A stretch of 64,000 nt of DNA, from assembly GCA_964016885.1 (NCBI GenBank), contig OZ024741.1, positions 207,638,001 to 207,702,000 of the forward strand, written 5' to 3'. Shown here piece after piece: positions 9,985 to 64,000 of the stretch. How positions within the stretch are numbered: the stretch's first letter is position 1; every line of letters starts with the position of its first letter. The stretch comes from Eledone cirrhosa. Its lineage: Eukaryota. The notes under the pieces are model-generated. The model was not told the origin of the DNA. It worked only from the letters and a program-made list of their open reading frames with translations, and did not search any database. The position numbers and the translations under genes were made by a program.

Positions 9985-10370
9985 GTGGTGGATTGGCAGT
10001 ATCGGTAGAGGGTCAGAGGCCATGCTTTGACGCAGAGAGTTACGGCCCTTGCCATTCTGAGTTCAAACTCCGCCAAGGTTAACTTTGCCTTTCATCCTTA
10101 CGGGGTCGATAAAATAAAGTACTAGTAATACACTGGGATAATTGCTGGCATTGTGCCAAAAGTAGAAATAATTATTTAGGGCGGTGGATTGGCAGTATCG
10201 GTAGAGGGTCGGACGCCATGCTTTGACGCATAGTGTTACGGCCCTTGCCATTCTGAGTTCAAATCCCGCCGAGGTTAACTTTGCCTTTCATCCTTACAGG
10301 GTCGATAAAATGAAGTACCAGTAATACACTGTGTAATTGCTGGCCTTGTGCCAAAAGTAGAAAAAATTAT
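9985..10370 (+). mobile_element. Head-to-tail tandem pair of MetaSINE-like SINEs
   Basis: Two consecutive copies, about 9985-10175 and 10180-10370. Confidence 0.85.
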
Positions 10371-10614
10371 TTATTCAAAGTAATCCAACTTATTTTAGTA
10401 ACTGGATTACAAGAAATAAACCGTACGTAGTCTCGCAGCCCTTACTTTATTATAGTTTAGATATAACTAGTAGCTGAAACTCCAGGAACAGTTACCACGA
10501 GTTTATCGTTTTTTTTATCATCAGACGAATCATTTAAAAATAGACAATAGTAAAATCAGGGAAATATTTGTAAAATACCCAGTTCATAAATCCATATGAA
10601 TGTATGTATGTATG

Positions 10615-34265: not shown

Positions 34266-37200
34266 TTTATTAAAATAACAGATTAAAGTTTAAGCAAAGA
34301 ATCGCTGCTTTCACCATTAACGAGATCTTCTGAAACTAACAAAGTCAAACTGTAAACGCAGAAGTGGATATTTCAAAAAACGTTGTAACCGGAGGAAGAC
34401 AGGAAGACGATACTTTGGTTCGTGGAAACGTTCCTTGGCAAAGAACGGGAACAAACGAATATATACGTCATTAATAGGAGCGGTGAAACACAATTACACG
34501 CAAAGACAGAACCACGTTTATGGTATAAAAGAAGTCGTAGACTAATGTTCTTTTAGGTGGTGCATAGAGACGTTCTCTGGCAATGAACGGAAAAAACGAA
34601 GATAATACGTCATATGTGGATCGTGGAGAACAATTGCAAGCAAAGACAAAACCACGTTTCTAACTACGAAACCGAAAGAATCTCCGCTTCAGAGTTAAGA
34701 ATAAAGTAAATAAAATACAATACAGAGGCAATAGAAATTAAATAAATACATACACGCATGCAAATACGTACATACACAAGCATACGCGAAAACACTTCCC
34801 ATAGGTATACAAAACCACGCACATACAAATGTGTGTGTGTGTGTGCGTGTATACAAATAAATGAATAAATAAATAAACGTATATAAATAAATAAATACGT
34901 ATATAACAAGCGCACACACATACATACATGTAAATACCCAAATGTTCGGAGATGTACGTCAACCAAAACATCAAGTACACATATACACACACCCTACATA
35001 CGTACGAACCTGCATACTCACACAGACGCAAAACTCCCGTATACACATAACCAAAACATATGTACCAGAATATATAAAATTATACGCCATAACATATACA
35101 ATCAAATATACGTACGAGAAAGTATACGTACCTTCACAAAACATACAGGTAATATATACTTACCTATGCAAATAAGTAATGGTATAAACATAACATATAC
35201 TTAGCTACCACGTCAAGACGTAAAATATCCACGTATAGATCGTACTATCCGTTAAGGTATAATGTGGAGCTTTAATACAGGAAAGTTTTGAGCAATTTAT
35301 GTTTACAAGCCGAAATTGCCTCAGATTTTTTGTTTAAGATGTGGTCTGTGGCGTAGAGTATTTCCAGGGCCTCAGCGGCGCAGAGGTCACATGGTCTTTT
35401 ATTTTCGTTATACGATCTATCCCTAGCTAGGATCTCCCAGTGTAAATTATATTGGGTGTGGTTGTCTTTTAGACTCCAGATATAAGCTGAAAGTGACGTC
35501 ATATTCCTTCTTAGAGGGTAACGAAAAGAATGGGTATGCATGTAAAGACGCTGTTTGAATCTATTGGCGGTTAACCCTATGTAGGTCCTACGGGACGTGG
35601 GTGTTTCAACCTTACATTTGTAGACAATGTTACTAGAGAGGCATTTTCCGGATAGGGGGCAATCAACGATTCCTACAATTACAGTTAGTACTAACTACAG
35701 GGTTGCACGTGTTCCTACGGCTAGTTAGTTTAGCTAAATTTGAAGCTGACTAAGTGCGGACCTCGTGCTTGCGACAGGTTCAGAAAAGAACTCACAGCCT
35801 TCTTTAAAGGCTTCAACCTGTCTATACAGGTTGAGGCCAATCTCTGGGAAGTTAATTACCTCGACGTTACCCTCAATTTATCGAATGGGTTGTATTACCC
35901 GTATAGAAAGCCGAATTATACGCTTAATTACATAAGTAAGCATTCCAACCATCCTGCCAGCATAACCAAGAACCTGGTAAGAAATGTTTCGTTGAGGCTT
36001 TCCCGTCTATCTACTAACGAGCATATTTTCACCGACCATTCCACTTATTACAAGGAAGCTTTTGCTCGGAGTGGATTTGTCGATAAGGTATACAGAGTGC
36101 GAAAATAGACCTAGAAGAAATAGATCCCGTCGCATTTGTTGGTATAACCCACCATATAATATGGAGGTGGCCACACCATTAGCTAAGATCTTTCTTTCCC
36201 TTATTACGAAGCATTTCTCCCCTACACATAAATATAGTAAAATTTTTAATAGAAATACTACTTAAATTTCTTACTCTACGACTCCTAACCTTGCACATAA
36301 CATCACAGCTTCAAATTTAGCTAAACTACCTAGCCGTAGGAACACGTGCAACCCTGTAGTTAGTACTAACTCTAATTGTAGGAATCGGGTTGATTGCCCC
36401 CTATCCGGGAAATGCCTCTCTAGTAACATTGTGTACAAATGTAAGGTTGAAACACCCACGTCTCGTAGGGCCTACATAGGGTTAACCGCCAATAGATTGA
36501 AGCAGCGTCTTTATATGCATTCCCATTCTTTTCGTTACGCTCTAAGAAGGAATATGACGTCACTTTCAGCTTATATCTGGAGTCTAAAAGACAACCACAC
36601 CCAATATAAGTTACACTGGGAGATCCTAGCTAGGGCTAGATCGTATAACGGAAATAAAAGACCATGTGACCTCTGCGCCGCTGAGGCCCTGGAAATACTC
36701 CACGCCACAGACCACATCTTAAACAAATAATCTGAGGCAATTTCGGCTTGTAAACATAAATTGCTCAAAACTTTCCTGTATTAAAGCCCCACGTTATACC
36801 CTAACGGACAGTACGATCTATACGTGGATATTTTACGTCTTGATGTGGTAGCTAAGTATATGTTATGTTTATACCATTACTTATTTGCATAGGTAAGTAT
36901 ATATTACCTGTATGTTTTGTGAAGGTACGTATACTTTCTCGTACGTATATTTGATTGTATATGTTATGGCGTATAATTTTATATATTCTGGTACATATGG
37001 TTTGGTTATGTTTATACGGGACTTTTGCGTCTGTGAGTATGCAGTTTCGTACGTATGTAGGGTGTGTGTGTATATGTACTTCATGTTTTGGTTGACGTTG
37101 TCTCCGAACATTTGTGTATTTACATGTAGGTATGTGTGTGCGCTTGTTATATACGTATTTATTTATTTATATACGTTTATTTATTTATTTATTTATTTGT

Positions 37201-37685
37201 ATACACGCACACACACACACACATATTTATATGTGCGTGGTTTTGTATACCTAGGGCAAGTGTTTTCGCGTATGCTTGTGTATGTACGTATTTGCATGCG
37301 TGTATGTATTTATTTAATTCCTATTACCTCTGTATTGTATTTTATTTACTTTATTCTTAACTCTGAAGCGGAGATTCTTTCGGGTTCCTAGTTAAAATTT
37401 TAGTCTACGACTTCAGCTATACCATTTGCGTGGTTCTGTCTTTGCGTGTAATTGTTTTTCACCGCTCCTATTAATAACGTATTATATTCTTTTTCCCCGT
37501 TCTTTGCCAGCGAACGTTTCCACGAACCAAAGTATCGTCTTCCTGTCTTCCTCCGGCTGCAACGTTTTTTGAAATATCCACTTCTGCGTCTACAGATTGA
37601 CTTTGTTAGTTTCAGAAGAACCCATTAAGGGTGAAAGCAGCGATTCTTTGCTTAAACTTTAATCTGTTATTTTAATAAATATTTG
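34266..37685. mobile_element. PLE (same family as 540-2620) as a head-to-head fold-back pair (minus 34266-~35748; plus ~35740-37685)
   Basis: VNYLDVTLNL...YRKPN, WYNPPY, YKCKV...YIGLT, SLSAYIWSLKD...CDLC; the long 3' UTRs are reverse complements. Confidence 0.9.
37608..37658 (+). ncRNA. Type I hammerhead-like motif with U4A core (CAGAAGA); mirror copy at 34287-34337 (-)
   Basis: agttt-CAGAAGA-ACCC-attaa-GGGT-GAAAGCAG-cgattct-TTGCTT-aaact; all three stems form. Confidence 0.6.
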
Positions 37686-37696
37686 CTCTACGGTTC

Positions 37697-39912
37697 TTAT
37701 ATATTTATTTATTTGCTTGTTTGTTTATCTTATTTTATTTTGTCTTCTTTGCGCATGCGTTTGCGTGTGTGTATAGTGTGATGTGTGACTAGTGTGTATA
37801 GTGTTGTGTCTGCTGGGTGACTAGTGTGTGTTTATGTGCTTGTGTATGTATTTATTTATCTTATTTTATTTAATTTTATTTACTTATTTATACTTCTCTT
37901 AGGTCAGTGTTGTTTGTTTGGGTGTTGTTGTTGTTCCACTCATTCTTTCTGTTTAGCTTTGGTCTTCTAATTTCTATTTCACTGGCCTCTCTGATTTGCC
38001 TATCTGCTGGGTCATTCCTATGTTTAGATATTATTCTAATTTCTATGTTGTCTATGTTACCGTCATGTTGTTGTCTAGCATGTTCGTATAGTACTGACCC
38101 GTTTTTTCGTCCTTTTAGTTCCCCCCAGTGTTGGTCTATCCTTTCACCTATGCTACGAGCTGTCTCACCTATGTATGTTGTTGTCGTGTTTCTGCAAGTA
38201 CCCTCTGTACATCTTATGCTATAGACTACGTTTCTAGTTTTACAGTTTATCCGGGGGTTCACCTTACAAATGATACATTTCCTATTGGTACAGTGGGTTT
38301 TCTTAAAAGGGTAGGTTTTGCTGATCAGGGATTTTATGGTGGTTCCTGGCTTTTCTACCACCTTTATTTTTAAGTGGGTCTTTCTCAGGGCCTTTCTACA
38401 CTGGTTAGCTAATTTCCCTCCAGGGGTGGCGTCCACAAACATGACACTCTGATATCTCTGGTTGTCGTACCATGATGTGGCCTTCCCTATCTTATGTCTA
38501 GCCCTATCTAAGCTATTCCATGATTTGCTCCTGTATAGTGGGCAAATTCCTTTCATGTCCAGTTCTATGAGGGTCTTATACTTTTCCATGGCTCCTTCGT
38601 ATACTCTGACTCTGTCTCTTTGGTTGTAGCCAGAGAACTGCATGCGGTTGATGAAGTGTTGGATGTGTCCTTCCATTTCTGTTGGGTCGCACATGCTGGA
38701 CACATTCTTCATCACTCGTACCAAATCTGCGATCAGAATATTAAACTTAGCACTACTGGACATTGCTGAGTTTTTGAGTATCAGGTATTTGGAGGCCATG
38801 GGTTTAGCATAGTGTGAGTGGAGAATTTGGGCTCTCTCGTCTATAGTGTTAATCCAGAGTTCTGTGTCTAATACAGGTAGTCTATTGTTAGGGTGTTTTG
38901 AATGTGTCCAGCATGTGCGACCCAACAGAAATGGAAGGACACATCCAACACTTCATCAACCGCATGCAGTTCTCTGGCTACAACCAAAGAGACAGAGTCA
39001 GAGTATACGAAGGAGCCATGGAAAAGTATAAGACCCTCATAGAACTGGACATGAAAGGAATTTGCCCACTATACAGGAGCAAATCATGGAATAGCTTAGA
39101 TAGGGCTAGACATAAGATAGGGAAGGCCACATCATGGTACGACAACCAGAGATATCAGAGTGTCATGTTTGTGGACGCCACCCCTGGAGGGAAATTAGCT
39201 AACCAGTGTAGAAAGGCCCTGAGAAAGACCCACTTAAAAATAAAGGTGGTAGAAAAGCCAGGAACCACCATAAAATCCCTGATCAGCAAAACCTACCCTT
39301 TTAAGAAAACCCACTGTACCAATAGGAAATGTATCATTTGTAAGGTGAACCCCCGGATAAACTGTAAAACTAGAAACGTAGTCTATAGCATAAGATGTAC
39401 AGAGGGTACTTGCAGAAACATGACAACAACATACATAGGTGAGACAGCTCGTAGCATAGGTGAAAGGATAGACCAACACTGGGGGGAACTAAAAGGACGA
39501 AAAAACGGGTCAGTACTATACGAACATGCTAGACAACAACATGACGGTAACATAGACAACATAGAAATTAGAATAATATCTAAACATAGGAATGACCCAG
39601 CAGATAGGCAAATCAGAGAGGCCAGTGAAATAGAAATTAGAAGACCAAAGCTAAACAGAAAGAATGAGTGGAACAACAACAACACCCAAACAAACAACAC
39701 TGACCTAAGAGAAGTATAAATAAGTAAATAAAATTAAATAAAATAAGATAAATAAATACATACACAAGCACATAAACACACACTAGTCACCCAGCAGACA
39801 CAACACTATACACACTAGTCACACATCACACTATACACACACGCAAACGCATGCGCAAAGAAGACAAAATAAAATAAGATAAACAAACAAGCAAATAAAT
39901 AAATAAATATAT
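37697..39912. mobile_element. Young PLE of a different clade as a fold-back pair (minus 37697-~38900; plus ~38900-39912)
   Basis: Open ORFs 37888-38925 (-) and 38898-39719 (+): LPVLD, HYAKPMAS, FVDATPGG, NVVYSIRC...YIGET.RS...R..QH. The translations differ at one visible residue (NTTT vs NMTT). Confidence 0.92.
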
Positions 39913-40233: not shown

Positions 40234-40261
<28 letters not shown>

Positions 40262-40271
<10 letters not shown>

Positions 40272-40732
40272 GCAATAGATTGACATATATATATATAAAA
40301 TAAACATATGAAACAATCACAGGGAATAATTTGTAAAGAGTGTAAGCACACACAGCTAGGTAGTTAACTAATTAAAGTTTAACTAGAACTTCAAATATTT
40401 AAAATGATTAATCTCCTTTGTATATGTTTCATTAAATATATTTCACCATTAATCGGTAAATCATAGTAGTCAAATGCGAAGATCCAGCTATCTGTGATTT
40501 ACCGATATGACTAATGTGATTTACCGATTAATGGTGAAATATATTTAATGAAATATATACAAAGGAGATTAATCATTTTAAAAGGTATCTATATTCGAAG
40601 TTCTAGTTAAAATTTAATTAGTTACCTACCTAGCTGTGTGTGCTTACACTCTTTACAAATTATTCCCTGTGATTGTTTCATGTGTTTATTTTATATATAT
40701 ATATATGTCAATCAATTTCTAGTTGATATATA
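40262..40732. repeat. Long imperfect palindrome (arms about 200 bp)
   Basis: 40262-40465 is the reverse complement of about 40515-40732. Confidence 0.85.
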
Positions 40733-40827
40733 AAATAAATGGTCGGATCTATTCATCGGAATCTTTGAGCTTATTCTGCTGTGGATATGGCGCATGTTTC
40801 TCAGACATGAGACCCTTAATTTAATTT

Positions 40828-40860
<33 letters not shown>

Positions 40861-40986
40861 GTTATTCCGGGTTGAATCGGAGGTAACCACAGTAAGTAAG
40901 GTACTCAGATATTCTTGATGATTTCTAAAGAATGAAACAGTTCTAGTCCTGTAGAATCTCATCTATATTAAAACTTTTAAACTCTG

Positions 40987-41022
<36 letters not shown>

Positions 41023-41029
<7 letters not shown>

Positions 41030-41492
41030 GGATTGGTGCTCTGAAATACCGATGTATACATGAATGTATGTATAGTATATTTGGCAATATACAGTATGTT
41101 TAATTAAAAACATTTTGAAGACCTTGCGCTATCGTTTTAAAGTAGTGACTATGTCACTTACTTCTATTTTCGGCAAAGAAGGGAGAGAAGATGACAGATT
41201 CTGTTTCACACTGTTGGTGTTCCTCAGAGCAACGTCTCTGCCGAAAATTATAGAAGCTGGATTCTTATAGAATTTCAGTAATAATCAGGAACTGATTATA
41301 CAGAGCGATTGCCGGTCCAGCAAAAATGAAAAATTAGGATTAGTGCTCTGAAATAGCGATGTATATATCTGTCAACTTCTCTCCCTTCTTTGCCGAAAGA
41401 AGAAGTAAGTGACATAGTCACCCCTTTAAAATGATAGCGCAAGGTCTTCAAAGTGTTTTTAATTAAACATACGGTATATTGCCTAATATACT

Positions 41493-41495
<3 letters not shown>
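41023..41495 (-). mobile_element. Dispersed diverged relative of the satellite monomer (about 1.1 units plus an inverted piece, 41368-41495)
   Basis: Shares aaattag.attgg.gctctgaaata, taatcagga.ctgatta..cagagcg and ttttgaagacc with the 48.3-kb array. Confidence 0.85.
41167..41247 (-). ncRNA. Type I hammerhead with canonical C3-G8 core in the satellite relative
   Basis: ttttcggcagagacGTTGct-CTGAGGA-ACAC-caaca-GTGT-GAAACAG-aat-CTGTC-atcttctct...tgccgaaaa. The proximal stem I is imperfect. Confidence 0.75.
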
Positions 41496-41558
<63 letters not shown>

Positions 41559-48223: not shown

Positions 48224-48985
<762 letters not shown>

Positions 48986-49110
48986 CATCCATATATATAT
49001 TGCTATTTCAGAGCTCCAATTCTAATTTTTAATTTCTGCCTGACCAACAACCGCTCTGCATAATCAGCTCCTGGTTATTTTCTAGATTTCTATAAGAATA
49101 TAACACCATT

Positions 49111-49203
49111 GATCTCAGTAGACAGGCGGGGTAGTTGGCCTTGATAAGCTTCAACAAAAGCGAAACATGTCATGTCGGCTTATCTCCCCTGTTTGCTGAG
49201 ATC
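49111..49203 (+). ncRNA. Type I hammerhead ribozyme, U3-A8 core (first plus-strand copy; repeated per monomer); predicted cleavage after C49176
   Basis: Stem I ggcc/ggct, extended by tagacagg/cctgtttg and gatctcag/ctgagatc. Core 49141-49147. Stem II GCTT/AAGC. GAAA at 49162-49165. Stem III ACAT/ATGT. GUC triplet. Confidence 0.88.
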
Positions 49204-52200
49204 AAAGTGAGTGAATGTGTCACTACTTTAAAACAATAGCTTACGGTCTTCAAAATGCTTTTAATTAAGCATAAGTGTATTGCAAAATACATCCATATAT
49301 ATATTGCTATTTCAGAGCTCCAATTCTAATTTTTAATTTCTGCCTGACCAACAACCGCTCTGCATAATCAGCTCCTGATTATTTACTAGATTTCTATAAG
49401 AATATAACATCATTGATCTCAGTAGACAGGCGGGGTAGTTGGCCTTGATAAGCTTCAACAAAAGCGAAACATGTCATGTCGGCTTATCTCCCCTGTTTGC
49501 TGAGATCAAAGTGAGTGAATTTGTCACTACTTTAAAACAATAGCTTACGGTCTTCAAAATGCTTTTAATTAAGCATAAAGTGTATTGCAAAATACATTAT
49601 ATATACATCCATATATGTATTGCTATTTCAGAGCTCCAATTCTAATTTTTAATTTCTGCCTGACCAACAACCGCTCTGCATAATCAGCTCCTGATTATTT
49701 ACTAGATTTCTATAAGAATATAACACCATTGATCTCAGTAGACAGGCGGGGTAGTTGGCCTTGATAAGCTTCAACAAAAGCGAAACATGTGATGTCGGCT
49801 TATCTCCCCTGTTTGCTGAGATCAAAGTAAGTGAATATGTCACTACTTTAAAACAATAGCTTACGGTCTTCAAAATGCTTTTAATTAAGCATAAGTGTAT
49901 TGCAAAATACATCCATATATATATTGCTATTTCAGAGCTCCAATTCTAATTTTTAAATTCTGCCTGACCAACAACCGCTCTGCATAATCAGCTCCTGATT
50001 ATTTACTAGATTTCTATAAGAATATAACATCATTGATCTCAGTAGACAGGCGGGGTAGTTGGCCTTGATAAGCTTCAACAAAAGCGAAACATGTCTTGTC
50101 GGCTTATCTCCCCTGTTTGCTGAGATCAAAGTGAGCGAATTTGTCACTACTTTAAAACAATAGCTTACGGTCTTCAAAATGCTTTTAATTAAGCATAAAG
50201 GGTATTGCAAAATACATTATATATACATCCATATATGTATTGCTATTTCAGAGCTCCAATTCTAATTTTTAATTTCTGCCTGACCAACAACCGCTCTGCA
50301 TAATCAGCTCCTGATTATTTCCTAGATTTCTATAAGAATATAACATCATTGATCTCAGTAGACAGGCGGGGTAGTTGGCCTTGATAAGCTTCAACAAAAG
50401 CGAAACATGTCATGTCGGCTTATCTCCCTTGTTTGCTGAGATCAAAGTGAGTGAATGTGTCACTACTTTAAAACAATAGCTTACGGTCTTCAAAATGCTT
50501 TTAATTAAGCATAAGTGTATTGCAAAATACATCCATATATATATTGCTATTTCAGAGCTCCAATTCTAATTTTTAATTTCTGCCTGACCAACAACCGCTC
50601 TGCATAATCAGCTCCTGATTATTTACTAGATTTCTATAAGAATATAACATCATTGATCTCAGTAGATAGACGGGGTAGTTGGCCTTGATAAGCTTCAACA
50701 AAGCGAAACATGTCATGTCGGCTTATCTCCCCTGTTTGCTGAGATCAAAGTGAGTGAATTTGTCACTACTTTAAAACAATAGCTTACGGTCTTCAAAATG
50801 CTTTTAATTAAGCATAAAGTGTATTGCAAAATACATTATATATACATCCATATATGTATTGCTATTTCAGAGCTCCAATTCTAATTTTTAATTTCTGCCT
50901 GACCAACAACCGCTCTGCATAATCAGCTCCTGGTTATTTTCTAGATTTCTATAAGAATATAACACCATTGATCTCAGTAGACAGGCGGGGTAGTTAGCCT
51001 TGATAAGCTTCAACAAAAGCGAAACATGTCATGTCGGCTTATCTCCCCTGTTTGCTGAGATCAAAGTGAGTGAATGTGTCACTACTTTAAAACAATAGCT
51101 TACGGTCTTCAAAATGCTTTTAATTAAGCATAAGTGTATTGCAAAATACATCCATATATATATTGCTATTTCAGAGCTCCAATTCTAATTTTTAATTTCT
51201 GCCTGACCAACAACCGCTCTGCATAATCAGCTTCTGATTATTTACTAGATTTCTATAAGAATATAACATCATTGATCTCAGTAGACAGGCGGGGTAGTTG
51301 GCCTTGATAAGCTTCAACAAAAGCGAAACATGTCATGTCGGCTTATCTCCCCTGTTTGCTGAGATCAAAGTGAGTGAATTTGTCACTACTTTAAAACAAT
51401 AGCTTACGGTCTTCAAAATGCTTTTAATTAAGCATAAAGTGTATTGCAAAATACATTATATATACATCCATATATGTATTGCTATTTCAGAGCTCCAATT
51501 CTAATTTTTAATTTCTGCCTGACCAACAACCGCTCTGCATAATCAGCTCCTGATTATTTACTAGATTTCTATAAGAATATAACATCATTGATCTCAGTAG
51601 ACAGGCGGGGTAGTTGGCCTTGATAAGCTTGAACAAAAGCGAAACATGTCATGTCGGCTTATCTCCCCTGTTTGCTGAGATCAAAATGAGTGAATGTTTC
51701 ACTACTTTAAAACAATAGCTTACGGTCTTCAAAATGCTTTTAATTCAGCATAAAGTGTATTGCAAAATACATTATATATACATCCATATATATATTGCTA
51801 TTTCAGAGCTCCAATTCTAATTTTTAATTTCTGCCTGACCAACAACCGCTCTGCATAATCAGCTCCTGATTATTTACTAGATTTCTATAAGAATATAACA
51901 CCATTGATCTCAGTAGACAGGCGGGGTAGTTGGCCTTGATAAGCTTCAACAAAAGCGAAACATGTCATGTCGGCTTATCTCCCCTGTTTGCTGAGATCAA
52001 AGTGAGTGAATGTGTCACTACTTTAAAACAATAGATTACGGTCTTCAAAATGCTTTTAATTAAGCATAAGTGTATTGCAAAATACATCCATATATATATT
52101 GCTATTTCAGAGCTCCAATTCTAATTTTTAATTTCTGCCTGACCAACAACCGCTCTGCATAATCAGCTCCTGATTATTTACTAGATTTCTATAAGAATAT

Positions 52201-55200
52201 AACATCATTGATCTCAGTAGACAGGCGGGGTAGTTGGCCTTGATAAGCTTGAACAAAAGCGAAACATGTCATGTCGGCTTATCTCCCCTGTTTGCTGAGA
52301 TCAAAGTGAGTGAATTTGTCACTACTTTAAAACAATAGCTTACGGTCTTCAAAATGCTTTTAATTAAGCATAAAGTGTATTGCAAAATACATTATATATA
52401 CATCCATATATGTATTGCTATTTCAGAGCTCCAATTCTAATTTTTAATTTCTGCCTGACCAACAACCGCTCTGCATAATCAGCTCCTGATTATTTACTAG
52501 ATTTCTATAAGAATATAACACCATTGATCTCAGTAGACAGGCGGAGTAGTTGGCCTTGATAAGCTTCAACAAAAGCGAAACATGTCATGTCGGCTTATCT
52601 CCCCTGTTTGCTGAGATCAAAGTAAGTGAATATGTCACTACTTTAAAACAATAGCTTACGGTCTTCAAAATGCTTTTAATTAAGCATAAGTGTATTGCAA
52701 AATACATCCATATATATATTGCTATTTCAGAGCTCCAATTCTAATTTTTAATTTCTGCCTGACCAACAACCGCTCTGCATAATCAGCTCCTGATTATTTA
52801 CTAGATTTCTATAAGAATATAACATCATTGATCTCAGTAGACAGGCGGGGTAGTTGGCCTTGATAAGCTTCAACAAAAGCGAAACATGTCTTGTCGGCTT
52901 ATCTCCCCTGTTTGCTGAGATCAAAGTGAGCGAATTTGTCACTACTTTAAAACAATAGCTTACGGTCTTCAAAATGCTTTTAATTAAGCATAAAGTGTAT
53001 TGCAAAATACATTATATATACATCCATATATGTATTGCTATTTCAGAGCTCCAATTCTAATTTTTAATTTCTGCCTGACCAACAACCGCTCTGCATAATC
53101 AGCTCCTGATTATTTCCTAGATTTCTATAAGAATATAACATCATTGATCTCAGTAGACAGGCGGGGTAGTTGGCCTTGATAAGCTTCAACAAAAGCGAAA
53201 CATGTCATGTCGGCTTATCTCCCTTGTTTGCTGAGATCAAAGTGAGTGAATGTGTCACTACTTTAAAACAATAGCTTACGGTCTTCAAAATGCTTTTAAT
53301 TAAGCATAAGTGTATTGCAAAATACATCCATATATATATTGCTATTTCAGAGCTCCAATTCTAATTTTTAATTTCTGCCTGACCAACAACCGCTCTGCAT
53401 AATCAGCTCCTGATTATTTACTAGATTTCTATAAGAATATAACATCATTGATCTCAGTAGATAGGCGGGGTAGTTGGCCTTGATAAGCTTCAACAAAAGC
53501 GAAACATGTCATGTCGGCTTATCTCCCCTGTTTGCTGAGATCAAAGTGAGTGAATTTGTCACTACTTTAAAACAATAGCTTACGGTCTTCAAAATGCTTT
53601 TAATTAAGCATAAAGTGTATTGCAAAATACATTATATATACATCCATATATGTATTGCTATTTCAGAGCTCCAATTCTAATTTTTAATTTCTGCCTGACC
53701 AACAACCGCTCTGCATAATCAGCTCCTGATTATTTACTAGATTTCTATAAGAATATAACATCATTGATCTCAGTAGACAGGCGGGGTAGGTGGCCTTGAT
53801 AAGCTTCAACAAAAGCGAAACATGTCATGTCGGCTTATCTCCCCTGTTTGCTGAGATCAAAGTGAGTGAATTTGTCACTAATTTAAAACAATAGCTTACG
53901 GTCTTCAAAATGCTTTTAATTAAGCATAAGTGTATTGCAAAATACATCCATATATATATTGCTATTTCAGAGCTCCAATTCTAATTTTTAATTTCTGCCT
54001 GACCAACAACCGCTCTGCATAATCAGCTCCTGATTATTTACTAGATTTCTATAAGAATATAACATCATTGATCTCAGTAGACAGGCGGGGTAGTTGGCCT
54101 TGATAAGCTTCAACAAAAGCGAAACATGTCATGTCGGCTTATCTCCCCTGTTTGCTGAGATCAAAGTGAGTGAATTTGTCACTACTTTAAAACAATAGCT
54201 TACGGTCTTCAAAATGCTTTTAATTAAGCATAAAGTGTATTGCAAAATACATTATATATACATCCATATATGTATTGCTATTTCAGAGCTCCAATTCTAA
54301 TTTTTAATTTCTGCCTGACCAACAACCGCTCTGCATAATCAGCTCCTGATTATTTACTAGATTTCTATAAGAATATAACATCATTGATCTCAGTAGACAG
54401 GCGGGGTAGTTGGCCTTGATAAGCTTGAACAAAAGCGAAACATGTCATGTCGGCTTATCTCCCCTGTTTGCTGAGATCAAAATGAGTGAATGTTTCACTA
54501 CTTTAAAACAATAGCTTACGGTCTTCAAAATGCTTTTAATTCAGCATAAAGTGTATTGCAAAATACATTATATATACATCCATATATATATTGCTATTTC
54601 AGAGCTCCAATTCTAATTTTTAATTTCTGCCTGACCAACAACCGCTCTGCATAATCAGCTCCTGATTATTTACTAGATTTCTATAAGAATATAACACCAT
54701 TGATCTCAGTAGACAGGCGGGGTAGTTGGCCTTGATAAGCTTCAACAAAAGCGAAACATGTGATGTCGGCTTATCTCCCCTGTTTGCTGAGATCAAAGTG
54801 AGTGAATGTGTCACTACTTTAAAACAATAGCTTACGGTCTTCAAAATGCTTTTAATTAAGCATAAGTGTATTGCAAAATACATCCATATATATATTGCTA
54901 TTTCAGAGCTCCAATTCTAATTTTTAATTTCTGCCTGACCAACAACCGCTCTGCATAATCAGCTCCTGATTATTTACTAGATTTCTATAAGAATATAACA
55001 TCATTGATCTCAGTAGACAGGCGGGGTAGTTGGCCTTGATAAGCTTCAACAAAAGCGAAACATGTCTTGTCGGCTTATCTCCCCTGTTTGCTGAGATCAA
55101 AGTGAGCGAATTCGTCACTACTTTAAAACAATAGCTTACGGTCTTCAAAATGCTTTTAATTAAGCATAAAGTGTATTGCAAAATACATTATATATACATC

Positions 55201-58200
55201 CATATATGTATTGCTATTTCAGAGCTCCAATTCTAATTTTTAATTTCTGCCTGACCAACAACCGCTCTGCATAATCAGCTCCTGATTATTTCCTAGATTT
55301 CTATAAGAATATAACATCATTGATCTCAGTAGACAGGCGGGGTAGTTGGCCTTGATAAGCTTCAACAAAAGCGAAACATGTCATGTCGGCTTATCTCCCT
55401 TGTTTGCTGAGATCAAAGTGAGTGAATGTGTCACTACTTTAAAACAATAGCTTACGGTCTTCAAAATGCTTTTAATTAAGCATAAGTGTATTGCAAAATA
55501 CATCCATATATATATTGCTATTTCAGAGCTCCAATTCTAATTTTTAATTTCTGCCTGACCAACAACCGCTCTGCATAATCAGCTCCTGATTATTTACTAG
55601 ATTTCTATAAGAATATAACATCATTGATCTCAGTAGATAGGCGGGGTAGTTGGCCTTGATAAGCTTCAACAAAAGCGAAACATGTCATGTCGGCTTATCT
55701 CCCCTGTTTGCTGAGATCAAAGTGAGTGAATTTGTCACTACTTTAAAACAATAGCTTACGGTCTTCAAAATGCTTTTAATTAAGCATAAAGTGTATTGCA
55801 AAATACATTATATATACATCCATATATGTATTGCTATTTCAGAGCTCCAATTCTAATTTTTAATTTCTGCCTGACCAACAACCGCTCTGCATAATCAGCT
55901 CCTGATTATTTACTAGATTTCTATAAGAATATAACATCATTGATCTCAGTAGACAGGCGGGGTAGGTGGCCTTGATAAGCTTCAACAAAAGCGAAACATG
56001 TCATGTCGGCTTATCTCCCCTGTTTGCTGAGATCAAAGTGAGTGAATTTGTCACTAATTTAAAACAATAGCTTACGGTCTTCAAAATGCTTTTAATTAAG
56101 CATAAGTGTATTGCAAAATACATCCATATATATATTGCTATTTCAGAGCTCCAATTCTAATTTTTAATTTCTGCCTGACCAACAACCGCTCTGCATAATC
56201 AGCTCCTGATTATTTACTAGATTTCTATAAGAATATAACATCATTGATCTCAGTAGACAGGCGGGGTAGTTGGCCTTGATAAGCTTCAACAAAAGCGAAA
56301 CATGTCATGTCGGCTTATCTCCCCTGTTTGCTGAGATCAAAGTGAGTGAATTTGTCACTACTTTAAAACAATAGCTTACGGTCTTCAAAATGCTTTTAAT
56401 TAAGCATAAAGTGTATTGCAAAATACATTATATATACATCCATATATGTATTGCTATTTCAGAGCTCCAATTCTAATTTTTAATTTCTGCCTGACCAACA
56501 ACCGCTCTGCATAATCAGCTCCTGATTATTTACTAGATTTCTATAAGAATATAACATCATTGATCTCAGTAGACAGGCGGGGTAGTTGGCCTTGATAAGC
56601 TTGAACAAAAGCGAAACATGTCATGTCGGCTTATCTCCCCTGTTTGCTGAGATCAAAATGAGTGAATGTTTCACTACTTTAAAACAATAGCTTACGGTCT
56701 TCAAAATGCTTTTAATTCAGCATAAAGTGTATTGCAAAATACATTATATATACATCCATATATATATTGCTATTTCAGAGCTCCAATTCTAATTTTTAAT
56801 TTCTGCCTGACCAACAACCGCTCTGCATAATCAGCTCCTGATTATTTACTAGATTTCTATAAGAATATAACACCATTGATCTCAGTAGACAGGCGGGGTA
56901 GTTGGCCTTGATAAGCTTCAACAAAAGCGAAACATGTGATGTCGGCTTATCTCCCCTGTTTGCTGAGATCAAAGTGAGTGAATGTGTCACTACTTTAAAA
57001 CAATAGCTTACGGTCTTCAAAATGCTTTTAATTAAGCATAAGTGTATTGCAAAATACATCCATATATATATTGCTATTTCAGAGCTCCAATTCTAATTTT
57101 TAATTTCTGCCTGACCAACAACCGCTCTGCATAATCAGCTCCTGATTATTTACTAGATTTCTATAAGAATATAACATCATTGATCTCAGTAGACAGGCGG
57201 GGTAGTTGGCCTTGATAAGCTTGAACAAAAGCGAAACATGTCATGTCGGCTTATCTCCCCTGTTTGCTGAGATCAAAGTGAGTGAATTTGTCACTACTTT
57301 AAAACAATAGCTTACGGTCTTCAAAATGCTTTTAATTAAGCATAAAGTGTATTGCAAAATACATTATATATACATCCATATATGTATTGCTATTTCAGAG
57401 CTCCAATTCTAATTTTTAATTTCTGCCTGACCAACAACCGCTCTGCATAATCAGCTCCTGATTATTTACTAGATTTCTATAAGAATATAACACCATTGAT
57501 CTCAGTAGACAGGCGGAGTAGTTGGCCTTGATAAGCTTCAACAAAAGCGAAACATGTCATGTCGGCTTATCTCCCCTGTTTGCTGAGATCAAAGTAAGTG
57601 AATATGTCACTACTTTAAAACAATAGCTTACGGTCTTCAAAATGCTTTTAATTAAGCATAAGTGTATTGCAAAATACATCCATATATATATTGCTATTTC
57701 AGAGCTCCAATTCTAATTTTTAATTTCTGCCTGACCAACAACCGCTCTGCATAATCAGCTCCTGATTATTTACTAGATTTCTATAAGAATATAACATCAT
57801 TGATCTCAGTAGACAGGCGGGGTAGTTGGCCTTGATAAGCTTCAACAAAAGCGAAACATGTCTTGTCGGCTTATCTCCCCTGTTTGCTGAGATCAAAGTG
57901 AGCGAATTCGTCACTACTTTAAAACAATAGCTTACGGTCTTCAAAATGCTTTTAATTAAGCATAAAGTGTATTGCAAAATACATTATATATACATCCATA
58001 TATGTATTGCTATTTCAGAGCTCCAATTCTAATTTTTAATTTCTGCCTGACCAACAACCGCTCTGCATAATCAGCTCCTGATTATTTCCTAGATTTCTAT
58101 AAGAATATAACATCATTGATCTCAGTAGACAGGCGGGGTAGTTGGCCTTGATAAGCTTCAACAAAAGCGAAACATGTCATGTCGGCTTATCTCCCTTGTT

Positions 58201-58918
58201 TGCTGAGATCAAAGTGAGTGAATGTGTCACTACTTTAAAACAATAGCTTACGGTCTTCAAAATGCTTTTAATTAAGCATAAGTGTATTGCAAAATACATC
58301 CATATATATATTGCTATTTCAGAGCTCCAATTCTAATTTTTAATTTCTGCCTGACCAACAACCGCTCTGCATAATCAGCTCCTGATTATTTACTAGATTT
58401 CTATAAGAATATAACATCATTGATCTCAGTAGATAGGCGGGGTAGTTGGCCTTGATAAGCTTCAACAAAAGCGAAACATGTCATGTCGGCTTATCTCCCC
58501 TGTTTGCTGAGATCAAAGTGAGTGAATTTGTCACTACTTTAAAACAATAGCTTACGGTCTTCAAAATGCTTTTAATTAAGCATAAAGTGTATTGCAAAAT
58601 ACATTATATATACATCCATATATGTATTGCTATTTCAGAGCTCCAATTCTAATTTTTAATTTCTGCCTGACCAACAACCGCTCTGCATAATCAGCTCCTG
58701 ATTATTTACTAGATTTCTATAAGAATATAACATCATTGATCTCAGTAGACAGGCGGGGTAGGTGGCCTTGATAAGCTTCAACAAAAGCGAAACATGTCAT
58801 GTCGGCTTATCTCCCCTGTTTGCTGAGATCAAAGTGAGTGAATTTGTCACTACTTTAAAACAATAGCTTACGGTCTTCAAAATGCTTTTAATTAAGCATA
58901 ACGTGTATTGCAAAATAC

Positions 58919-59102
58919 GGTGAATTGGCAGTATCGGTAGAGGGTCGGACGCCATGCTTTGACGCATAGATATACGGCCCTTGCCATTCTGAGTTCAAAT
59001 CCCGCCGAGGTTAACTTTGCCTTTCATCCTTACGGGGGTCGATAAAATAAAGTACCAGTAATACACTGGGAAATTGCTGGCCTTGTGCCAAAAGTAGAAA
59101 CA
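58919..59102 (+). mobile_element. MetaSINE-like SINE inserted in a satellite monomer
   Basis: Interrupts caaaatac|attatatatac; no clear TSD. Confidence 0.92.
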
Positions 59103-62100
59103 ATTATATATACATCCATATATGTATTGCTATTTCAGAGCTCCAATTCTAATTTTTAATTTCTGCCTGACCAACAACCGCTCTGCATAATCAGCTCCTG
59201 ATTATTTACTAGATTTCTATAAGAATATAACATCATTGATCTCAGTGGACAGGCGGGGTAGTTGGCCTTGATAAGCTTCAACAAAAGCGAAACATGTTAT
59301 GTCGGCTTATCTCCCCTGTTTGCTGAGATCAAAGTGAGTGAATGTGTCACTACTTTAAAACAATAGCTTACGGTCTTCAAAATGCTTTTAATTAAGCATA
59401 AAGTGTATTGCAAAATACATTATATATACATCCATATATATATTGCTATTTCAGAGCTCCAATTCTAATTTTTAATTTCTGCCTGACCAACAACCGCTCT
59501 GCATAATCAGCTCCTGATTATTTACTAGATTTCTATAAGAATATAACACCATTGATCTCAGTAGACAGGCGGGGTAGTTGGCCTTGATAAGCTTCAACAA
59601 AAGCGAAACATGTCATGTCGGCTTATCTCCCCTGTTTGCTGAGATCAAAGTGAGTGAATGTGTCACTACTTTAAAACAATAGCTTACGGTCTTCAAAATG
59701 CTTTTAATTAAGCATAAGTGTATTGCAAAATACATCCATATATATATTGCTATTTCAGAGCTCCAATTCTAATTTTTAATTTCTGCCTGACCAACAACCG
59801 CTCTGCATAATCAGCTCCTGATTATTTACTAGATTTCTATAAGAATATAACACCATTGATCTCAGTAGACAGGCGGGGTAGTTGGCCTTGATAAGCTTCA
59901 ACAAAAGCGAAACATGTCATGTCGGCTTATCTCCCCTGTTTGCTGAGATCAAAGTGAGTGAATGTGTCACTACTTTAAAACAATAGCTTACGGTCTTCAA
60001 AATGCTTTTAATTAAGCATAAGTGTATTGCAAAATACATCCATATATATATTGCTATTTCAGAGCTCCAATTCTAATTTTTAATTTCTGCCTGACCAACA
60101 ACCGCTCTGCATAATCAGCTCCTGATTATTTACTAGATTTCTATAAGAATATAACATCATTGATCTCAGTAGACAGGCGGGGTAGTTGGCCTTGATAAGC
60201 TTCAACAAAAGCGAAACATGTCATGTCGGCTTATCTCCCCTGTTTGCTGAGATCAAAGTGAGTGAACGTGTCACTACTTTAAAACAATAGCTTACGGTCT
60301 TCAAAATGCTTTTAATTAAGCATAAAGTGTATTGCAAAATACATTATATATACATCCATATATATATTGCTATTTCAGAGCTCCAATTCTAATTTTTAAT
60401 TTCTGCCTGACCAACAACCGCTCTGCATAATCAGCTCCTGATTATTTACTAGATTTCTATAAGAATATAACACCATTGATCTCAGTAGACAGGCGGGGTA
60501 GTTGGCCTTGATAAGCTTCAACAAACGCGAAACATGTCATGTCGGCTTATCTCCCCTGTTTGCTGAGATCAAAGTGAGTGAATGTGTCACTACTTTAAAA
60601 CAATAGCTTACGGTCTTCAAAATGCTTTTAATTAAGCATAAGTGTATTGCAAAATACATCCATATATATATTGCTATTTCAGAGCTCCAATTCTAATTTT
60701 TAATTTCTGCCTGACCAACAACCGCTCTGCATAATCAGCTCCTGATTATTTACTAGATTTCTATAAGAATATAACATCATTGATCTCAGTAGACAGGCGG
60801 GGTAGTTGGCCTTGATAAGCTTCAACAAAAGCGAAACATGTCATGTCGGCTTATCTCCCCTGTTTGCTGAGATCAAAGTGAGTGAATGTGTCACTACTTT
60901 AAAACAATAGCTTACGGTCTTCAAAATGCTTTTAATTAAGCATAAAGTGTATTGCAAAATACATTATATATACATCCATATATATATTGCTATTTCAGAG
61001 CTCCAATTCTAATTTTTAATTTCTGCCTGACCAACAACCGCTCTGCATAATCAGCTCCTGATTATTTACTAGATTTCTATAAGAATATAACATCATTGAT
61101 CTCAGTAGACAGGCGGGGTAGTTGGCCTTGATAAGCTTCAACAAAGCGAAACATGTCATGTCGGCTTATCTCCCCTGTTTGCTGAGATCAAAGTAAGTGA
61201 ATTTGTCACTACTTTAAAACAATAGCTTACGGTCTTCAAAATGCTTTTAATTAAGCATAAAGTGTATTGCAAAATACATTATATATACATCCATATATGT
61301 ATTGCTATTTCAGAGCTCCAATTCTAATTTTTAATTTCTGCCTGACCAACAACCGCTCTGCATAATCAGCTCCTGGTTATTTTCTAGATTTCTATAAGAA
61401 TATAACACCATTGATCTCAGTAGACAGGCGGGGTAGTTAGCCTTGATAAGCTTCAACAAAAGCGAAACATGTGATGTCGGCTTATCTCCCCTGTTTGCTG
61501 AGATCAAAGTGAGTGAATGTGTCACTACTTTAAAACAATAGCTTACGGTCTTCAAAATGCTTTTAATTAAGCATAAGTGTATTGCAAAATACATCCATAT
61601 ATATATTGCTATTTCAGAGCTCCAATTCTAATTTTTAATTTCTGCCTGACCAACAACCGCTCTGCATAATCAGCTCCTGATTATTTACTAGATTTCTATA
61701 AGAATATAACATCATTGATCTCAGTAGACAGGCGGGGTAGTTGGCCTTGATAAGCTTCAACAAAAGCGAAACATGTCATGTCGGCTTATCTCCCCTGTTT
61801 GCTGAGATCAAAGTGAGTGAATTTGTCACTACTTTAAAACAATAGCTTACGGTCTTCAAAATGCTTTTAATTAAGCATAAAGTGTATTGCAAAATACATT
61901 ATATATACATCCATATATGTATTGCTATTTCAGAGCTCCAATTCTAATTTTTAATTTCTGCCTGACCAACAACCGCTCTGCATAATCAGCTCCTGATTAT
62001 TTACTAGATTTCTATAAGAATATAACATCATTGATCTCAGTAGACAGGCGGGGTAGTTGGCCTTGATAAGCTTGAACAAAAGCGAAACATGTCATGTCGG

Positions 62101-63769
62101 CTTATCTCCCCTGTTTGCTGAGATCAAAGTGAGTGAATTTGTCACTACTTTAAAACAATAGCTTACGGTCTTCAAAATGCTTTTAATTAAGCATAAAGTG
62201 TATTGCAAAATACATTATATATACATCCATATATGTATTGCTATTTCAGAGCTCCAATTCTAATTTTTAATTTCTGCCTGACCAACAACCGCTCTGCATA
62301 ATCAGCTCCTGATTATTTACTAGATTTCTATAAGAATATAACACCATTGATCTCAGTAGACAGGCGGAGTAGTTGGCCTTGATAAGCTTCAACAAAAGCG
62401 AAAAATGTCATGTCGGCTTATCTCCCCTGTTTGCTGAGATCAAAGTAAGTGAATATGTCACTACTTTAAAACAATAGCTTACGGTCTTCAAAATGCTTTT
62501 AATTAAGCATAAGTGTATTGCAAAATACATCCATATATATATTGCTATTTCAGAGCTCCAATTCTAATTTTTAATTTCTGCCTGACCAACAACCGCTCTG
62601 CATAATCAGCTCCTGATTATTTACTAGATTTCTATAAGAATATAACATCATTGATCTCAGTAGACAGGCGGGGTAGTTGGCCTTGATAAGCTTCAACAAA
62701 AGCGAAACATGTCATGTCGGCTTATCTCCCCTGTTTGCTGAGATCAAAGTGAGCGAATTTGTCACTACTTTAAAACAATAGCTTACGGTCTTCAAAATGC
62801 TTTTAATTAAGCATAAAGTGTATTGCAAAATACATTATATATACATCCATATATGTATTGCTATTTCAGAGCTCCAATTCTAATTTTTAATTTCTGCCTG
62901 ACCAACAACCGCTCTGCATAATCAGCTCCTGATTATTTCCTAGATTTCTATAAGAATATAACATCATTGATCTCAGTAGACAGGCGGGGTAGTTGGCCTT
63001 GATAAGCTTCAACAAAAGCGAAACATGTCATGTCGGCTTATCTCCCTTGTTTGCTGAGATCAAAGTGAGTGAATGTGTCACTACTTTAAAACAATAGCTT
63101 ACGGTCTTCAAAATGCTTTTAATTAAGCATAAGTGTATTGCAAAATACATCCATATATATATTGCTATTTCAGAGCTCCAATTCTAATTTTTAATTTCTG
63201 CCTGACCAACAACCGCTCTGCATAATCAGCTCCTGATTATTTACTAGATTTCTATAAGAATATAACATCATTGATCTCAGTAGATAGGCGGGGTAGTTGG
63301 CCTTGATAAGCTTCAACAAAAGCGAAACATGTCATGTCGGCTTATCTCCCCTGTTTGCTGAGATCAAAGTGAGTGAATTTGTCACTACTTTAAAACAATA
63401 GCTTACGGTCTTCAAAATGCTTTTAATTAAGCATAAAGTGTATTGCAAAATACATTATATATACATCCATATATGTATTGCTATTTCAGAGCTCCAATTC
63501 TAATTTTTAATTTCTGCCTGACCAACAACCGCTCTGCATAATCAGCTCCTGATTATTTACTAGATTTCTATAAGAATATAACATCATTGATCTCAGTAGA
63601 CAGGCGGGGTAGGTGGCCTTGATAAGCTTCAACAAAAGCGAAACATGTCATGTCGGCTTATCTCCCCTGTTTGCTGAGATCAAAGTGAGTGAATTTGTCA
63701 CTACTTTAAAACAATAGCTTACGGTCTTCAAAATGCTTTTAATTAAGCATAACGTGTATTGCAAAATAC

Positions 63770-63952
63770 GGTGAATTGGCAGTATCGGTAGAGGGTCGGA
63801 CGCCATGCTTGACGCATAGATATACGGCCCTTGCCATTCTGAGTTCAAATCCCGCCGAGGTTAACTTTGCCTTTCATCCTTACGGGGGTCGATAAAATAA
63901 AGTACCAGTAATACACTGGGAAATTGCTGGCCTTGTGCCAAAAGTAGAAACA
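63770..63952 (+). mobile_element. MetaSINE-like SINE at the identical monomer position (duplicate of 58919-59102)
   Basis: Near-identical sequence and the same preceding variant gcataacgtg. Confidence 0.92.
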
Positions 63953-64000
63953 ATTATATATACATCCATATATGTATTGCTATTTCAGAGCTCCAATTCT

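Follow-up and report, generated by a model that had tools for sequence, protein, structure and literature searches.

A two-armed hammerhead element at 41 kb

The stretch of Eledone cirrhosa DNA that we analyzed (64,000 nt, hereafter the window) contains at 41023–41514 an element made of two arms placed back to back, a span given as 41023–41495 in an earlier note on this DNA. It is bordered by (TA)n target runs at 40988–41023 on the left and 41515–41557 on the right. Arm 1 (41023–41368, minus strand) holds about 1.1 units of approximately 307 nt, compared to approximately 316 nt in the family; it crosses one cleavage site, and its 3′ end, the end with the "tail" of about 30 nt, lies approximately 170 nt beyond that site. 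Arm 2 (41367–41514, plus strand) is inverted and 5′-truncated, shares 90.5% identity with arm 1, and ends at its 3′ side about 140 nt beyond the cleavage site.

A type I hammerhead motif occupies 41190–41230 on the minus strand, with C3 at 41227, G8 at 41222 and C17 at 41193. On the same strand are the core CUGAGGA (41227–41221), stem II (41220–41208; ACAC/GUGU, loop CAACA), the GAA (41207–41205), and arm III (41194–41204; ACAG/CUGU), which is palindromic to its centre, with 5 pairs and 1 unpaired nucleotide, and is the predicted dimer interface. An outer stem spans 41167–41247 on this strand and pairs UUUUCGGCA (41247–41239) with UGCCGAAAA (41175–41167). The core, the stems and the outer stem were all present exactly as the earlier note had described them. 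So were their counterparts at the homologous place of the satellite that begins further right in the window (UUGAUAA, GCUU/AAGC and ACAU/AUGU), where stem III again consists of 5 pairs around one nucleotide. The proposed homology between the 41-kb unit and the satellite monomer held as well: they share 75% identity over 355 nt (E = 1.5e-62), and the ribozymes lie at the same aligned place.

The proximal stem I of the 41-kb copy is damaged, and its decay, noticed before, proved to be private to this copy. The stem I spacer measures 10 nt here, compared to 18–20 nt in 31 of the 32 parsed nearest relatives and 12 nt in the remaining one, and the AUC that follows the cleavage site occurs in none of the 32. 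Since a deletion in the 5′ side of stem I and a substitution just past the cleavage site are both private, the copy is probably dead. For its hammerhead fold, the predicted energy exceeds that of the best fold by 10 kcal/mol, and a search of Rfam returned no hammerhead match for it; the microRNA matches that Rfam did return were microsatellite artefacts. Copies resembling the 41-kb unit share 90–94% identity with it.

Several other elements lie close by. A second, unrelated hammerhead element at 40859–40990, between TA runs, consists of two inverted pieces with an end of about 50 nt; its core carries U3·G8 here and C3-G8 in the copy at locus L018, and pieces of it were found in 16 further fetched loci. 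To its left, a further inverted repeat lies between TA runs at 40238–40800. At 34600–37600 and 37690–39910 lie two Penelope-like elements, both broken; they have inverted arms and frames that resemble GIY-YIG at the C-terminal end (family assigned by eye; no Pfam match). A degenerate hammerhead-like motif is present near 37610; neither Penelope-like fragment has homology to the 41-kb element. At another locus, L104 (900–2900), units of about 420 bp form an unrelated tandem array; each unit carries a hammerhead-like motif, and the array ends in a TA run.

The 41-kb element belongs to a dispersed retrozyme family

A young insertion of the same family, with a U3-A8 core, lies further right in the window. 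Its left arm (48319–48979, minus strand) holds about two units and adjoins a (TA)n run, and its right arm (48979–64000, plus strand) is expanded into the 316-bp satellite with U3-A8 hammerheads, which extends at least 9 kb beyond the window. A 183-bp insert is found at the same unit position of the satellite at 58918–59103 and 63770–63953, and also in locus L168. Because this insert recurs in higher-order repeats, the satellite is a two-armed insertion in which the right arm was afterwards amplified at the DNA level. The insert resembles a short repeat at 9987–10373. Copies of the satellite subfamily that are 99–100% identical occur on many chromosomes, showing that the subfamily was recently mobile and is dispersed.

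In the 3.0-Gb genome, a pattern joining the conserved flank to the core matched 6,579 times, compared to 81 times in a reversed control, and a flank-only pattern matched 5,477 times, compared to 38 in its control; both counts are lower bounds that include tandem units. The family has the features of a type I hammerhead (core positions 3–9, G12-A13-A14, A15.1-U16.1, H17, three helices and an open end at stem I), together with a stem I internal loop and an A-rich loop II. Against the Rfam model Hammerhead_HH9, satellite units scored at most 32.4 bits and so fell short of its gathering score of 52, which is a database threshold and not a defining feature of the fold. The tandem unit is non-coding, falls within 170–400 nt and holds a single type I hammerhead, and no reading frame of an element was present among frames of at least 140 aa. 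We take the 41-kb unit to be a copy of a non-LTR retrozyme family. This family was not found described in the literature that we searched, with incomplete coverage, for octopus hammerheads, cephalopod retrozymes and compensatory subfamily change.

The animal non-LTR retrozymes described previously (Cervera and de la Pena 2020, PMC7229834; Li, Clavereau and Pollet 2026, 10.64898/2026.07.22.740005) have the same kind of non-coding unit of 170–400 nt with one type I hammerhead each. They likewise range from monomers to long tandem arrays, are low in GC, and have been proposed to be mobilized by Penelope-like elements through circular RNA. Expression and cleavage were shown for those retrozymes, whereas the present family is known from genome sequence.

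Insertions carry a Penelope-like footprint

Of 48 arms at 25 young loci, 45 extend across one to seven cleavage sites. The 5′ truncations were spread over the unit, none of the 48 arms being truncated within 12 nt of a cleavage site; an apparent truncation there at 10 of 100 junctions was an artefact of the query edge and fell to 0 of 48 with a circular reference. The 3′ ends clustered at 139–141 and at 164–177 nt past the cleavage site, usually with one of each per locus. In a set of 101 loci of all ages, 50 were inverted pairs, and at 61 a TA run flanked one side or both. An inverted 5′-truncated arm, a tail at one end and a microsatellite target were thus all found. Penelope-like insertions show the same partial tandems, inverted 5′-truncated copy, 30–40-nt tail at one end and (TA)n bias (Craig et al. 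2021, 10.1101/2021.04.23.441226), although the retrozyme differs from those elements in having no reading frame. By analogy with them, the insertion structure is that of a Penelope footprint. The template was likely an RNA circle, but uncut multimers would also allow read-through of the sites.

We looked for an autonomous element whose terminal repeat has sequence in common with the retrozyme; neither 30 loci from one GIY-YIG family nor the Penelope-like fragments of the window itself contained such sequence. That GIY-YIG family, which adjoins locus L008, was rejected as the autonomous partner, since it has no sequence in common with the retrozyme and its ends are mostly (CA)n. In a check for expression, matching contigs numbered 1,646 in one of four coded runs and 2–4 in each of the other three, and were given no weight.

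The stems and the core pair covary

The earlier note had claimed that sequence differs between copies while pairing is kept. In 37 copies picked across the tree and aligned by sequence only (3 of 40 picks being left out), 97.1% of cells were paired, and 125 double changes were counted compared to 1–12 in slid registers, so that the stem halves covary well above these controls. The outer extension of stem I comprises 12 paired columns across the family, 6 of them changed on both sides.

The covariation check suggested beforehand, with the 3-8 pair included, was carried out with a test of our own that resembles R-scape: a G statistic with background correction, with a null in which the substitutions on the tree were moved to random columns in 60 replicates. 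Out of 43,660 column pairs the 3-8 pair took the top rank, and its E-value across all of them was 0.17; its significance therefore holds only as a test of named pairs, and with our own null. Among 23 named pairs, 8 reached a two-set E < 0.05, namely 3-8, one pair of the proximal stem I, all four pairs of stem II and two of the outer stem. In 34 of 101 copies the first position of stem II is a mismatch, A·A or U·U. The predicted minimum-energy fold differed from the hammerhead in 11 of 12 copies, with a gap of 0.7–10 kcal/mol (5.4 in the satellite). An alternative helix between the core and arm III, predicted in several subfamilies and at first sight conserved, showed no covariation and was discarded.

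Outside the ribozyme, columns 238–277 (approximately 80–120 nt past the cleavage site) form two hairpins with paired changes (241–252 and 261–274) and very few other changes. Lying just upstream of the fixed 3′ ends, these hairpins are a possible recognition site for a partner enzyme.

The 3-8 pair switched twice

In a fixed pattern context genome-wide, positions 3 and 8 were U-A in 3,947 matches, C-G in 1,591, C·A in 67 and U·G in 44, with 0–2 in controls. Watson-Crick pairs thus account for 5,538 of 5,649 matches, and mismatches for 111, compared to approximately 2,330 expected under independence. Independent variation of the two positions, the outcome named beforehand as counting against a selected fold, was therefore not seen, 98.0% of the 5,649 matches being Watson-Crick. 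Since the copies are not independent, we built trees without the ribozyme columns, from an alignment of 101 rows (20 of 121 extracted segments, short or outside the family, having been dropped first) and from a larger one of 147 rows. Because the pattern used to collect this sample prescribes most bases of the core, invariance of the core on its tree is circular; copies from the flank-only search were therefore scored as well (below).

In both trees the 3-8 pair needs two changes, and each time both bases change on the same well-supported branch. The two branches are short (0.022 and 0.018 changes per column), and there is no other internal change at position 3 or 8. Only two independent events thus lie behind the thousands of copies. 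A single U-A clade was rejected (p-AU 0.001 with 101 rows and 8e-7 with 147 rows). The median end-branch length is 0.061 in the old U-A copies, 0.042 and 0.021 in the C-G groups, and 0.022 and 0.008 in the younger U-A groups. The tree is unrooted, but because end-branch lengths fall along this series, the age of the copies suggests the order U-A, C-G, U-A.

At the second switch G7 also changed to U, and the three changes at 3, 7 and 8 recreate the old core exactly. This exactness would also be expected if the second U3-A8 core had been re-imported from the old subfamily by recombination, in which case the swap would have a single origin, with the same element and the same selection. The bases on both sides of the core, however, continue the immediate C-G ancestor and not the old U-A lineage, which would confine an imported patch to approximately 7–10 nt, and C-G relatives with U7 exist; we therefore regard recombination as unlikely and favor two separate switches.

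The subfamily just after the second switch comprised 97 U-A copies and one each of C·A, U·G and C-G among the 100 matches listed, and copies with a 3-8 mismatch are scattered across subfamilies. A candidate C·A intermediate at the older switch, where three hand-picked copies formed a starred clade, was abandoned when the addition of U-A copies of the same background left them intermixed, pointing to independent decay. Among 100 copies listed from the flank-only search and scored by eye, 80 had an intact Watson-Crick core, 2 a 3-8 mismatch and 18 (from 14 loci) a core lesion; none of these lesions was common to two loci of one subfamily. Within single insertions, one core lesion was common to all four units at G000:C1:57405997-57407048, and a different one occurred in two units at 23437646-23438155, as expected if one template was copied repeatedly.

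Arm III is a palindrome in many sequence forms

Arm III (15.1 to 16.1) is a palindrome with at most two unpaired central nucleotides in 72 of 101 copies (100 of 147 in the larger set), whereas six other hairpins of the unit, scored with the same measure, were palindromic in only 0–6 of 101 copies. The arm III palindromes come in many sequence forms of 8–13 nt. Within one hairpin their inner pairs could not form, whereas between two units they can, which matches the published dimer model and suggests that there was selection for double-hammerhead cleavage. Dimeric hammerheads of newt, axolotl and Penelope-like elements (PMC7229834, PMC4209133, PMC3088659, PMC6765202) likewise have a palindromic stem III and loop that can pair two units. 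Compared with stem III as described in those reports, the present one is longer, with 4–6 pairs in the dimer, which would let several subfamilies fold as monomers too, and the palindrome has been rebuilt in many sequence forms.

Discussion

Our results probably mean that the 41-kb unit, itself damaged, is one of the dispersed copies of a hammerhead family of approximately 316 nt, in which the 3-8 pair and the stems changed in compensated steps from subfamily to subfamily, likely because only copies that folded and cut themselves multiplied. The ribozyme would cut tandem transcripts, with neighboring units probably paired through arm III into a double hammerhead, and the monomers would then be ligated into circles. 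A Penelope-like reverse transcriptase with a GIY-YIG endonuclease would prime at a TA-rich stretch approximately 140 nt past the cleavage site, and reverse transcription would run round the circle into both ends of the break. Selection on the fold, as the earlier note had proposed, is well supported by the paired 3-8 changes on two branches and by the covariation of the stems. From these sequence patterns we infer, in line with that note, that members of the family would have been functional self-cleaving RNAs.

Hitchhiking or a mutational artefact could in principle produce similar patterns. Linked changes would then have been carried along in a single master lineage, hairpin arms would have been matched by template switching, and covariation would reflect ancestry and mutation bias. 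The family is indeed a ladder of successive masters, for which reason many unrelated columns co-vary, and the hairpins at columns 241–252 and 261–274 also have paired changes. The 3-8 pair, however, is an isolated tertiary pair that belongs to no hairpin arm, and it is the pair whose two bases changed on the same short branch twice and at no other internal point of the tree. Moreover, the loops of the six other hairpins are not palindromic. This explanation is therefore very unlikely, and selection on a folding, self-cutting RNA is preferred.

Also very unlikely is that the fold was selected as a recognition structure for the partner enzyme or as a stabilizing rod, with cleavage dispensable or very slow: arms that read through cleavage sites as uncut multimers would allow, predicted lowest-energy folds that sequester the core, and the failure of 8 of 9 Xenopus retrozyme dimers to cleave in vitro (Li, Clavereau and Pollet 2026, 10.64898/2026.07.22.740005) would be consistent with it, but the 3-8 pair is described as mattering for catalysis and not for secondary structure (PMC3088659), and no broken-core subfamily had been amplified among the 100 flank-selected copies listed.

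Retrozymes, natural U3-A8 cores and dimer palindromes have already been published. Hammerheads with a natural U3-A8 pair (Perreault et al. 2011, PMC3088659), including those of Schistosoma Penelope-like elements (Cervera and de la Pena 2014, PMC4209133), have the same compensated pair and are stated to be active in vitro, but these accounts report them as separate examples or families and not as repeated switches in one lineage. The accounts of animal retrozymes cited above, as far as they go, contain no subfamily phylogeny, covariation test or U3-A8 core, whereas the present family contains both cores and switched twice between them. What is new is phylogenetically controlled evidence, consisting of two paired switches of a catalytic pair and a repeatedly rebuilt palindrome.

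A bolder reading, which we put forward only tentatively and think rather doubtful, is that the genome keeps a series of dated fossils of a circular RNA lineage with an obligate double hammerhead, and that new mutations took the 3-8 pair from U-A to C-G and later back again, no mismatched stage being amplified. The core of one unit in a dimer cuts the site of the other, and a unit with a mismatch could then have been carried by its neighbors until the second mutation occurred.

The need for the hammerhead in transposition of Penelope-type elements and retrozymes has been stated to be unclear (Craig et al. 2021, 10.1101/2021.04.23.441226). The present family offers natural matched variants, namely C-G, U-A and mismatched cores and several arm III palindromes. 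A catalysis-specific pair that changed twice in step, recorded in thousands of dated copies, is genetic evidence of selection on the active fold at the level of the mobile element.
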